Assembly: GCA_024653875.1 (NCBI GenBank)
Contig: JANLHE010000192.1
Location: 565 to 64,564, forward strand
Direction: 5' to 3'
DNA: 64,000 nt
Source of the DNA: Acidobacteriota bacterium
Lineage (GTDB): Bacteria; Acidobacteriota; Vicinamibacteria; Vicinamibacterales; SCN-69-37
Position 1 is the stretch's first letter, and every line of letters starts with the position of its first letter. Below the pieces are notes generated by a model, which saw nothing but the letters and a program-made list of their open reading frames with translations, was not told the DNA's origin and did not search any database. Positions 61,532 through 63,467 of this stretch are shown here, one piece after another. The position numbers and the translations under genes were made by a program.

Positions 61532-61535
61532 CGTC

Positions 61536-61563
61536 TTGACACGTTGATGGTTAATTTGATACT
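61536..61563 (+). promoter_or_regulatory. Promoter candidate TTGACA-N16-GATACT
   Basis: TTGACA at 61536-61541 in an AT-rich patch right after the terL stop, about 55 nt upstream of the ATG at 61619. Confidence 0.4.
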
Positions 61564-61618
61564 CATAATGATGTCTAGCGGCACAGTTCGCCGCCAGGCG
61601 CACCATGGAGTCTCAATC

Positions 61619-61945
61619 ATGGCAATCACCGCACAGATCGCACCAGCGCCGACGCTACCCTGCGCGCCTGAGTTCGTGTTGATCAACGACGACGGCCGCT
61701 TCTACGAGGATTACGAGCACTACCCACAGGGCTTTCACAACAATGACCGCATTGAGCGCGTCACGCGGAACGCCGAGCCCTTGTACTGGTATGCCACGGT
61801 CACCGACCGCGACGACAATGGCAATGACTACTTCCACCACGAGTCCGGGGAATGCCGCACCCCCGAGGAAGCGGTCGCGTGGGTCCTGGCGCGCCGCGCG
61901 GAAGGCCCGAAGAACCGACCGGAACAGGAGGCCGTATGCCGCTAG
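61619..61945 (+). CDS. Hypothetical acidic 108-aa protein
   Basis: GGAG SD before the ATG at 61619, in frame with track ORF 61544..61945. Confidence 0.4.
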   Translation: MAITAQIAPAPTLPCAPEFVLINDDGRFYEDYEHYPQGFHNNDRIERVTRNAEPLYWYATVTDRDDNGNDYFHHESGECRTPEEAVAWVLARRAEGPKNRPEQEAVCR

Positions 61946-62187
61946 ATCCCCGTCTGCACCACGTCGCCATCCGCCCCTGGCCGCGATGCACCCCCACGGG
62001 TACCCCCGAGGTGGCCGTCCTGGTCGAACACGTGGACCGTCCCTTGAACCGGGTGATGCCCGAGGGCCTCTACGTCACACGGACCCGGGCGGTCGTTCAG
62101 GCGCCCCGCGCGTTCGACACCGCGTTCGTCTACAGCGGCGGCACCCTCCCTATCATCGACTTCACCCCACGAAAGCAGGAACCATGA
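61936..62187 (+). CDS. Hypothetical 83-aa protein
   Basis: AGGAGG SD before the ATG at 61936, in frame with track ORF 61852..62187. Confidence 0.35.
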   Translation: MPLDPRLHHVAIRPWPRCTPTGTPEVAVLVEHVDRPLNRVMPEGLYVTRTRAVVQAPRAFDTAFVYSGGTLPIIDFTPRKQEP

Positions 62188-62561
62188 CCAAGCCCGAAGC
62201 CCTCAAGCGCCTCGCACGGCTCTTCGGAACCAAGCTGCGGTATCGGGAGGACCCCAAGGCCCATCGTGGGCCGGAGGCGCGTGACGCCGCCACCGCCGCC
62301 CTCAGAGAGGCCCGTCAAACCGCCGCCGACCTGAGCGCCGCCCGGAATGCCAGACACAAGGCCCTACTGGACGGCGACGCCGAGTATCAGCGCATCCTGC
62401 GGGACTTCCACGCCGCGCGCGACTGCCGCGACACCCTTGAGGCCGAGGCTGGCCGCTATCGTCTCACCGTGGGCGTCGAGGAGATGGGGTTCTTTCTCGT
62501 CAAAGCGCACGGCGACAACTGGGCCGACATCGTCCGGAAGGTGGAGGAAAAGAAGTCATGA
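62184..62561 (+). CDS. Hypothetical 125-aa helical protein
   Basis: ATGA overlap start, in frame with track ORF 61743..62561. Confidence 0.4.
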   Translation: MTKPEALKRLARLFGTKLRYREDPKAHRGPEARDAATAALREARQTAADLSAARNARHKALLDGDAEYQRILRDFHAARDCRDTLEAEAGRYRLTVGVEEMGFFLVKAHGDNWADIVRKVEEKKS

Positions 62562-62625
62562 AGCACCCGAAGCCCCTCACCAAGCGGGAACAGGCCCTCG
62601 CCGAAAAATAAACCTCCTGGACACC

Positions 62626-62654
62626 TTGACATGTTGTATCCCGTATGATACAAT
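62626..62654 (+). promoter_or_regulatory. Consensus sigma70-type promoter TTGACA-N17-TACAAT with embedded inverted repeat TTGTATC-N6-GATACAA
   Basis: TTGACA at 62626-62631 and TACAAT at 62649-62654. The inverted repeat spans 62634-62653. A 5'-UTR hairpin GCCCGG-N6-CCGGGC lies at 62689-62706. Confidence 0.6.
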
Positions 62655-62720
62655 ACGTGTATGGTCGTGATGGACACGGCCACATAAAGCCCGGCAGCCA
62701 CCGGGCAGGAGACACAGACT

Positions 62721-62969
62721 ATGACGACCCGATATCGCACCGCCGCAGACGCCATCGAGCGCAGTATCAGCCACGACGAGATCGTCCACCTCGACTACGA
62801 CGCGGACATCCACGCCGACTTAATCGTCGCGTGCGACGATTGGACGGATGGTCTCTACGAGACTGAGTATTGGGCCGACGCTGAGGGGAGCGACGGCACA
62901 GACGGAGAGATGGCGTGGCGGGTCCACTTGCGCCACCCGGTGACGGTGCAGGACGTAGACGCCGAATAA
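62721..62969 (+). CDS. Very acidic 82-aa protein (anti-defence / DNA-mimic candidate)
   Basis: GGAGA SD. 14 Asp and 7 Glu against 5 Arg and 0 Lys. Followed by two GC hairpins (62988-63002, 63034-63055). Confidence 0.5.
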   Translation: MTTRYRTAADAIERSISHDEIVHLDYDADIHADLIVACDDWTDGLYETEYWADAEGSDGTDGEMAWRVHLRHPVTVQDVDAE

Positions 62970-63062
62970 CTCCATGCTCTGACAAGTGCCCGGTCTCCGG
63001 GCCTGTCGCAGCCTCCAGCGTGGTCCGCTGGCAGCCGGGGTAGGTAAGCCCCGGCGCAATTT

Positions 63063-63257
63063 ATGCCCCTGAACCTCTCCCACATCCGCACACTGATCGG
63101 TGATCGCGCCATCGCTGAGGTCGCGAGGTCAGCCCAAATCACGAATGCCAATCTCCACGCGCTGCTGAGCGGACGGCAGACCGACCCCAAGCTCAGTACG
63201 ATTGAGCGGCTGGCCCGTGCACTGGGCGTATCAGCACGGCTGCTGATCCGGCGATAG
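63063..63257 (+). CDS. Small XRE-family HTH regulator (64 aa)
   Basis: IAEVARSAQITNANLHALLSGRQ...LSTIERLARALGVSARLLI. Confidence 0.6.
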   Translation: MPLNLSHIRTLIGDRAIAEVARSAQITNANLHALLSGRQTDPKLSTIERLARALGVSARLLIRR

Positions 63258-63296
63258 CGACGGCACCACGCCAAATCTGCTATCATAGTGACCATC

Positions 63297-63467
63297 ATGC
63301 CCACGCACTCGAAAAAGACAATTCCCGTCAAGCCACAGGAAACACACGACTTCCTGGTCCGCAATATCCCGCGCACCTTGTGGGACCGCTTCCGGGCCAA
63401 GGCGCATGAGGACGGCCGCAGCTACCGCGCCGCGGTGGTCGAACTCATGCGGGATTACGTGAAATGA
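63297..63467 (+). CDS. Ribbon-helix-helix (Arc/MetJ/antitoxin-like) protein, 56 aa
   Basis: Below the track cutoff. FLVRNIPRTLWDRFRAKAHEDGRSYRAAVVELMRDYV is a typical RHH beta-strand plus two helices. TATCAT -10-like sequence upstream. Confidence 0.5.
   Translation: MPTHSKKTIPVKPQETHDFLVRNIPRTLWDRFRAKAHEDGRSYRAAVVELMRDYVK

Follow-up and report, generated by a model that had tools for sequence, protein, structure and literature searches.

A putative self-repressed, acr-aca-like cassette in the gene island after terL of a temperate P22-like phage from an Acidobacteriota assembly

The stretch analyzed here, hereafter the window, comprises 64,000 nucleotides (nt) of contig JANLHE010000192.1 from an Acidobacteriota bacterium (GenBank assembly GCA_024653875.1, contig positions 565–64,564, forward strand), and the gene content of these 64 kb reads as that of a temperate P22-like phage. 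Its large terminase gene, terL, is followed by an island of small genes, in the middle of which lies a compact cassette (62604–63257). This cassette is composed of a promoter, named P2, with a palindrome inside it, a gene for a very acidic protein, named the cargo, and a gene for a minimal helix-turn-helix (HTH) protein. Its features are arranged as follows, lengths of proteins being given in amino acids (aa).

62604–62612, plus strand: A-rich tract AAAAATAAA, about 14 nt upstream of the −35 element of P2, UP-element-like (read from the sequence)
62626–62654, plus strand: promoter P2, TTGACA-N17-TACAAT, with TG directly upstream of the −10 element (extended −10); 11 of 12 consensus positions
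62634–62653, no strand: predicted operator TTGTATC-N6-GATACAA, a perfect 7+7 palindrome over the spacer and the −10 element (from the sequence)
62662–62706, plus strand: 5′ untranslated region (UTR) with two hairpins (62662–62682 and 62689–62706), then AGGAG; minimum free energy (MFE) −24.5 kcal/mol, z −2.9
62721–62969, plus strand: cargo gene, very acidic protein of 82 aa with 21 Asp + Glu and 5 Lys + Arg, isoelectric point (pI) 4.2; identical to MCR4374216.1
62976–63055, plus strand: three-hairpin element between the cargo and HTH genes; MFE −48.9 kcal/mol, z −3.3
63063–63257, plus strand: minimal XRE-type HTH protein of 64 aa, predicted autorepressor of P2; Pfam HTH_31, HTH_3 and HTH_26 above cut-offs

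The promoter at 62626–62654, the inverted repeat covering its spacer and −10 element, the charge composition of the 82-aa protein, and the XRE-type HTH gene downstream of it had all been described in an earlier reading of this DNA, called here the original prediction, and are present as described. The cargo and HTH genes share a strand and are separated by 93 nt that contain no promoter. P2 is the sole match to TTGACA-N15-19-TANNNT in the 64 kb. Its palindrome extends to arms of 12 nt, in which 10 of the 12 bases are complementary, and has no second copy in the window at up to three mismatches.

Close homologues of the HTH protein are rare: only three were found among 5.8 billion clustered proteins, with 65–86% identity, and each is encoded in a cassette of the same kind. 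The comparison therefore bears on four cassettes in three loci, namely the window, L004 with two cassettes (L004a and L004b), and L006, which is the same sequence as L005. In every cassette, the HTH gene has a single small gene in front of it, together with a TTGACA promoter that carries a palindrome in its spacer and −10 element. The HTH proteins of the window and L004b are 86% identical and have the helix 3 sequence TNANLHALLSG, and the half-site of their palindromes is TGTATC/GATACA, the full palindrome of L004b being ATGTATC-N6-GATACAA. L004a and L006 share the helix 3 sequence TDGNLHRLLRP and the half-site CCTATC/GATAGG, in the palindrome TCCTATC-N6-GATAGGA. Since the palindrome is kept while its arms co-vary with the recognition helix, we read the HTH protein and the palindrome as a protein and its own operator. 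The autoregulation of P2 put forward by the original prediction is thereby made likely, as judged from the operator arms and HTH subtypes of the four cassettes. The A-rich tract, which is conserved in L006 and similar in L004a, may act as an UP element.

The first genes of the four cassettes are mutually unrelated: they encode the acidic 82-aa protein in the window, a zinc-ribbon-like, Cys-rich protein of 65 aa in L004b, and proteins of 113 aa (L004a) and 73 aa (L006) that belong to no family. All four HTH genes begin with ATGCCCCT (Met-Pro-Leu) and have no Shine-Dalgarno sequence (starts at 63063 in the window, 2087 and 2865 in L004, and 1222 in L006); the cargo genes of the window and L006 have AGGAG. 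The missing Shine-Dalgarno sequence in 4/4 HTH genes fits a regulator made at a low level.

The cassettes of L004 and L006 adjoin integrases at the edges of integrated elements. Between the two cassettes of L004, near a tyrosine integrase, a minus-strand stretch at about 2478–2527 resembles the 3′ half of a transfer RNA (tRNA), with a T-arm GGTTCGAATCC and a CCA end. It is placed as a remnant of an attachment site would be; ARAGORN and Rfam made no call on it. Searches with the HTH alignment found no relatives in IMG/VR, and isolate phage genomes contain no HTH homologue. The Joint Genome Institute (JGI) metagenomes hold distant relatives only, with 40–50% identity over the main aligned segment, which look like antitoxins of toxin-antitoxin systems or a longer HTH protein.

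Both noncoding parts of the cassette are predicted to be structured. The hairpin announced for the 5′-UTR is present, in the form of two hairpins rather than one, and the GC hairpins announced for the region before the HTH gene do lie in the 93-nt spacer, where they number three, not two. When the window is compared with L006, the A-tract, promoter, leader with its hairpins, ribosome-binding site, and three-hairpin spacer are almost identical, despite unrelated cargos and HTH proteins of 66% identity. In the middle spacer hairpin, three consecutive base pairs are changed in a compensatory manner between the two; for a pair of sequences, this is suggestive of a conserved RNA stem, not proof of one. 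The cargo open reading frame (ORF) is bracketed by two hairpins of the same stem, GCCCGG/CCGGGC (62689–62706 and 62987–63001), situated 15 nt before its start codon and 18 nt after its stop codon, and the same arrangement surrounds the unrelated cargo of L006. These hairpins could be RNA elements or mark the limits at which cassettes recombine. The hairpin region has no match in Rfam, and the exact hairpin sequences have none in IMG/VR. As the hairpins are the same in cassettes with differing HTH subtypes and operators, we consider it unlikely that they serve, as in the case of Aca2, as RNA sites specific to the HTH protein; possible roles include attenuation, stabilization of the messenger RNA (mRNA), and the marking of recombination boundaries.

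The 82-aa cargo protein, whose identical entry MCR4374216.1 is annotated as hypothetical protein NUW22_05145 of an Acidobacteria bacterium, has no match in Pfam, PHROG, NCBIfam, PADLOC, or the PDB. A profile search nonetheless delineates a large family of 925 cluster representatives at E ≤ 1e-3, or 248 under the stricter limit of E ≤ 1e-10, characterized by the motifs RSISHNEIV, EYWG, and WRVH and, in the short members, by a median net charge of −11. The source protein excepted, the clusters are unnamed metagenomic singletons. None of the family members matches Pfam, 1 of 37 has a marginal PHROG match (E 0.0049), and isolate phage genomes contain no homologue of the family consensus. Two AlphaFold2 models, with predicted local distance difference test (pLDDT) values of 77.5 and 82, adopt a compact α-β-α-β-β-β fold. 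When these models were compared with the PDB by Foldseek, nothing was obtained at E ≤ 0.001 (best TM-score about 0.35); the profile found nothing among PDB sequences at E ≤ 5, and the fold matches in BFVD are uncharacterized phage proteins only. The order of the elements resembles that of Ugi, and this likeness was rejected for want of any such match in Foldseek.

A DNA mimic of the Ocr or ArdA type, as which the acidic protein had been put forward, is not borne out. Like Ocr and ArdA, the 82-aa protein is small, strongly acidic, and predicted to be made early. Ocr and ArdA are elongated and helical, whereas its predicted fold is a compact α/β one, with no similarity in sequence or fold to Ocr, ArdA, or any solved structure, and negative charge alone is common. 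Among the relatives of the protein, those in L001 and L011 (a P22-like phage) come third in an early operon, with ERF/YqaJ genes downstream; that in L003 follows a primase-like gene, and that in L013 lies beside an integrase. None of these four has an HTH partner, which argues against a role as a toxin. Their contexts fit an early, host-directed function, for which anti-defence is a candidate.

The curated family closest to the HTH protein is one of antitoxins. Its sole match in NCBIfam is TIGR02684, "addiction module antidote protein", over profile positions 43–87 of 89, with 17.1 bits against a cut-off of 53.7; the match is thus confined to the C-terminal half, does not include the N-terminal part, and lies far below the cut-off. 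We scanned IMG/VR for the motif TTGACA-N2-4-TGTATC-N6-GATACA, with a non-palindromic motif of the same composition as control. The scan yielded 68 matches in 34 distinct promoter contexts, compared with 6 matches in 3 contexts for the control. At 12 of the matching loci (about 7 distinct contexts), an HTH protein encoded some 330 nt downstream of the motif matches the profile built from the HTH proteins of the four cassettes, with E values from 5e-10 to 8e-4. Two of these HTH proteins and one upstream gene were scanned against NCBIfam: each exceeds the respective cut-off, the HTH proteins with TIGR02684 (103 and 122 bits) and the upstream gene with TIGR02683 (142 bits), a RelE/ParE toxin family. 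The palindrome TGTATC-N6-GATACA in TTGACA promoters is widespread in viral contigs of 30–63% GC (IMG/VR loci L014–L080), where it also fronts DNA polymerase genes and small early genes with no HTH gene immediately downstream.

A parallel is offered by HigA2 of Vibrio cholerae, whose C-terminal HTH binds TGTACGC-N5-GCGTACA, located after the −35 and over the −10 element, and whose N-terminal disordered region neutralizes the toxin (PMC11006873). Because the TIGR02684 match is confined to the C-terminal half and the neutralizing arm of VcHigA2 is N-terminal, we read the 64-aa HTH protein as the DNA-binding domain of an antitoxin without its neutralizing arm. The likeness to the HI1419/HI1420 (TIGR02683/TIGR02684) and HigB2/HigA2 modules thus comprises an HTH homologous to the C-terminal half of TIGR02684, the palindrome that HI1419/HI1420 modules in IMG/VR carry inside a TTGACA promoter, an operator of the same position and similar TGTA...TACA outline as that of VcHigA2, and a regulator encoded by the second gene. 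Unlike HigB2/HigA2-type modules, the cassette has no RelE/ParE toxin and a first gene that varies from one cassette to another, and its HTH protein is short by about 40 N-terminal residues and scores far under the family cut-off.

The cassette is embedded in an island whose other genes, together with the two terminase genes upstream of it, are arranged as follows. GC3 is the GC content at third codon positions.

59529–60110, plus strand: terS, small terminase subunit; Pfam Terminase_2 (E 4.7e-24), PHROG 51
60107–61531, plus strand: terL, large terminase subunit, upstream border of the island; Pfam Terminase_6N, PHROG 2
61536–61563, plus strand: P1, promoter-like TTGACA-N16-GATACT directly after the terL stop codon; 10 of 12 consensus positions
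61619–61945, plus strand: g1, acidic protein of 108 aa, pI 4.8; ORF with GGAG 8 nt upstream, GC3 0.77
61936–62187, plus strand: g2, protein of 83 aa; ORF overlapping g1, AGGAGG upstream
62184–62561, plus strand: g3, basic protein of 125 aa; ORF overlapping g2
63297–63467, plus strand: Arc-like ribbon-helix-helix (RHH) protein of 56 aa; PHROG 6506 "Arc-like repressor" (E 2.4e-6)
63464–63703, plus strand: acidic protein of 79 aa, its start overlapping the RHH stop; no family match (Pfam, PHROG)
63712–64000, plus strand: basic, Cys-containing ORF running off the window end; weak sub-threshold matches only

The promoter-like site right after the terL stop codon (61531) and the three small genes behind it agree with the original prediction. 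The genes g1, g2, and g3 have the ribosome-binding sites GGAG, AGGAGG, and AGGA, respectively, and a GC3 of about 0.77 each; a possible ORF of 17 codons (62558–62611) follows g3. In Pfam, PHROG, and PADLOC, g1 and g2 have no match and g3 no significant one. The RHH protein also matches Pfam FitA-like_RHH, weakly and below the cut-off, and none of the non-HTH proteins of the island matches a PADLOC defence model. P1 holds only a half-site (GATAC) of the P2 palindrome, and its co-regulation by the HTH protein, considered for this reason unsupported, was dropped. Inspection of the sequence gave no convincing promoter for the HTH gene or the RHH gene, and no site resembling an intrinsic terminator was found on the plus strand in 61500–64000; the unit runs beyond the window.

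The 64-kb window contains no portal or coat gene, and the absence of a portal after terL, noted in the original prediction, holds for the 2.5 kb that remain of the window. Most likely, the phage has its portal gene past base 64000. Its closest relatives by terL (60–64% identity) differ in the genes that follow terL. Two of them, with 63–64% identity, reach a P22-type portal followed by scaffold and coat genes: L088 after two small genes and L087 (terL 63% identical) after five. In L086, at least nine small genes follow terL, and no portal is seen in 3.7 kb, at which point the contig ends. In L001, a more distant relative, the portal overlaps terL, leaving no small gene between them. Since these relatives hold 0, 2, 5, or at least 9 small genes at this place, we regard the terL-portal junction as a variable hotspot, and the proposed insertion of an island between the terminase and the morphogenesis genes is indirectly borne out by the small genes that precede the portal in them. 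Like P1 in the window, a TTGACA-N17 promoter-like site directly follows the terL stop codon in both L086 and L088. Among the nine small genes of the L086 island (8585–12211) are an acyl-carrier-protein-like gene (PP-binding) and a RlaP-family gene. In L087, a minus-strand gene at 1912–2289, beside RecT in an early operon, encodes an Acb2_Tad1_hairpin domain, which is known from anti-CBASS and anti-Thoeris sponges; phages of this clade thus carry a domain associated with anti-defence.

On balance, we read the stretch after terL as a variable accessory island of a temperate P22-like phage, with a self-repressed, acr-aca-like cassette at its core (62604–63257), a reading that we hold with moderate confidence. 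Its regulatory part, the self-repressed cassette, is well supported by the sequence comparisons; the anti-defence role of the cargo is a plausible hypothesis. What the analysis establishes are the sequence features, homologies, co-variation, and gene neighborhoods; the DNA binding, the repression, its timing, and the function of the cargo are inferred, according to the following scheme. Host sigma-70 RNA polymerase would fire the near-consensus P2, with its A-tract, TTGACA, 17-bp spacer, and TG-extended TACAAT, once the DNA enters the cell. In the resulting mRNA, the first gene, that of the 82-aa acidic protein, would be preceded by a structured leader and a strong ribosome-binding site and followed by the three-hairpin spacer and the HTH gene devoid of a Shine-Dalgarno sequence. 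A dimer of the HTH protein would bind TTGTATC-N6-GATACAA across the spacer and −10 element and shut P2 off, the outcome being an early burst of cargo protein, then silence, with less read-through into downstream genes. The HTH protein would represent the DNA-binding half of a HigA/HI1420-type antitoxin, ahead of which different elements have placed different cargos. The cargo itself would most likely bind and inhibit a host protein early in infection, with anti-defence as the leading candidate.

The layout that had suggested an anti-CRISPR (acr) and anti-CRISPR-associated (aca) locus, with a promoter-embedded inverted repeat, a small first gene, and an HTH gene, is confirmed. As in acrIF1-aca1 of JBD30 and acrIF8-aca2 of ZF40, a strong promoter of constitutive type carries a conserved inverted repeat in its core, small first genes vary between elements, and a small HTH regulator, encoded downstream in the same operon, is predicted to repress it. 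Structured RNA in the leader and between the genes, an RHH gene nearby, and an own promoter within the structural or late region of the phage are further common traits. Unlike these loci, the cassette has a first gene that is not a known Acr, an HTH gene that is not the last of its unit, hairpins that are shared across differing operators, and an HTH protein with no detectable relation to Aca proteins of solved structure. Among PDB sequences, in which Aca1 (7FA3) and Aca2 (7B5J) are presumed to be present, a profile search found no Aca protein at E ≤ 1. Inverted repeats in the core promoter mediate the repression of acr-aca promoters by Aca proteins, and uncontrolled acr transcription harms downstream phage genes (PMC9410906). 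Leader and intergenic RNA motifs, co-regulated neighboring operons, and an Aca of the RHH type (Aca14) have also been described for acr-aca operons (PMC13551039). The cassette likewise resembles phage morons, which are autonomously expressed accessory modules (bioRxiv 10.1101/2024.10.15.618418): the island has promoters of its own (P1 and P2), accessory content, conserved morphogenesis genes as neighbors, and a variable presence between them in close relatives. Unlike the cassette, whose repressor and operator travel with the cargo slot, classic morons consist of a promoter and a terminator and usually have no dedicated repressor.

Several observations weigh against this interpretation. The cargo matches no known anti-defence protein in Pfam, PHROGs, NCBIfam, the PDB, or isolate phage genomes, and its motifs are strongly conserved over 925 clusters, a pattern not usually seen in anti-defence proteins, which evolve fast. 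Nor is the layout diagnostic by itself, because only about 15% of Aca-like HTH genes adjoin known acr genes (PMC9410906). The hairpins have no U-tract, and the HTH gene is followed within its unit by the RHH gene, the 79-aa gene, and further ORFs, with no obvious promoter or terminator. The co-variation of helix and operator rests on few independent events, as there are only four cassettes and two operator types, and the evidence for an insertion is indirect because the portal lies outside the window.

Among the alternatives, a type II toxin-antitoxin module of the HigB/HigA (HI1419/HI1420) kind would make the first gene a toxin and the HTH protein its antitoxin and the repressor of the operon. 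The only curated family matched by the HTH protein is indeed an antidote family, and the gene order and operator position are those of the TIGR02683/TIGR02684 modules that use TGTATC-N6-GATACA and of VcHigBA2 (PMC11006873). We nevertheless consider such a module improbable. The part that binds the toxin in VcHigA2 (PMC11006873) is the N-terminal one that the HTH protein lacks, in keeping with its 17 bits against 53.7. The 82-aa protein is strongly acidic and matches neither RelE/ParE nor any other toxin, whereas a control toxin, from L032, was recognized by TIGR02683 with an E value of 4.6e-42. Its relatives in L001, L003, L011, and L013 occur without any HTH partner, and one near-identical HTH protein could not specifically neutralize four unrelated partners. 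A secondary immunity region resembling immI of P22, in which an antirepressor-type protein modulating the CI/Cro switch would itself be under the control of the HTH and the Arc-like RHH proteins, has about the same low probability in our view. The virion module is P22-like, the RHH gene directly follows the HTH gene, and immI of P22 likewise lies outside the main immunity region, among late genes. Against it, the related cassettes pair the same HTH with unrelated first genes and have no RHH gene, the acidic family occurs in phages without this HTH or RHH, and neither Pfam nor PHROG detects an Ant-like domain.

Somewhat less improbable, albeit still unlikely, is that the cassette is an ordinary moron, expressed by the prophage and serving the lysogen, for example through superinfection exclusion or defence against other phages, and not a counter-defence gene that acts during infection. 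The sigma-70-type promoter inside the late region, the varying presence among relatives, and the position of the related cassettes (L004 and L006) beside integrases at the edges of integrated elements would all suit this explanation. It accords less well with tight self-repression, which predicts low steady-state expression in a lysogen, with a cargo that is a small, soluble, acidic protein, with the lack of PADLOC matches among the non-HTH proteins of the island, and with the cargo relatives found in early lytic operons beside ERF/YqaJ recombination or primase-like genes. Finally, promoter and palindrome might be chance matches among ORFs of no special organization. One TTGACA/TANNNT match in 64 kb is within expectation (0.32 expected; at least one in 27 of 100 shuffles), and TTGACA itself is not enriched in the window. 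P2 is set above chance by the perfect palindrome inside it, by its position in a noncoding gap, and by being conserved in related loci, where the arms show compensating changes. Because independent contigs preserve the promoter, the palindrome, the leader, and the spacer, with compensating changes in the operator arms as well as in an RNA stem, and the palindromic motif is enriched more than 10-fold over the control in viral contigs, we regard chance as very improbable.

Should the acr-aca-like reading hold, it would provide a new regulator family for guilt-by-association searches for anti-defence genes, from Acidobacteriota-associated phages where none is known, and a concrete evolutionary route by which an antitoxin becomes an Aca-like repressor with its operator retained. 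As candidates it would nominate the cargo genes of the three other cassettes and the 82-aa acidic family (925 clusters). In this P22-like clade, the terL-portal junction is a hotspot worth mining, and should the cargo be an early protein of an ordinary kind, the locus would nonetheless clearly exemplify a self-repressed moron. A further-reaching proposal, to which we give only a small chance, is that of a portable "cargo slot", derived from a HigBA/HI1420-type module by loss of the toxin and of the toxin-binding arm, which now serves as an Aca-like controller of interchangeable counter-defence genes. Because the operator of resident toxin-antitoxin modules has been kept, the phage HTH protein might then silence, or cross-talk with, HI1419/HI1420-type abortive-infection modules of the host, and the acidic family would be a widespread, hitherto unrecognized inhibitor of a conserved host defence or housekeeping protein.

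The rest of the window is in keeping with a temperate P22-like phage: base 1 falls inside a gp10-like head-completion gene, frame 1 being open from base 1 and its product matching PHROG 578. The listed ORF 58–627 (plus strand) is only the C-terminal part of this edge-cut gene (window 1–627). The virion module continues with ejection-protein genes, including an ORF of 4619 aa, and then the tail region, after which a transposase and a tyrosine integrase are encoded on the minus strand. A divergent HTH pair follows at 37233–38215, composed of a CI-like protein of 216 aa (minus strand, 37233–37880) and a Cro-like protein of 102 aa (plus strand), which is likely the main lysogeny switch. The 64-aa HTH protein was rejected as that switch, this pair being located at 37.2–38.2 kb, and is accordingly an additional regulator. 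The early genes come next, two DNA methyltransferase genes among them, and then terS and terL. TerL is identical to an NCBI entry from a metagenome-assembled genome, "terminase family protein", and shares 36–40% identity with TerL of Rhodoferax phage P26218 and Pelagibacter phage HTVC010P.

The single ORF of 4619 aa (6982–20841, plus strand) occupies the ejection-protein position of the virion module and is unusually large for a podovirus-type internal protein. Its C-terminal region of about 900 aa matches PHROG 9880 (E 5e-202), and the ORF further matches several other PHROGs of unknown function and has stretches that weakly resemble RNA ligase and endolysin. In the minus-strand region with genes at 32588–33826 and 35431–36663, a transposase gene (PHROG 506) separates the tail module from the tyrosine integrase, which suggests an insertion sequence element inserted near the attachment-site end of the phage genome. 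The two methyltransferase genes of the early region (53176–55171, plus strand) adjoin and overlap each other, one being of the D12 class and Dam-like and the other matching PHROG 116, and may themselves be anti-restriction functions.

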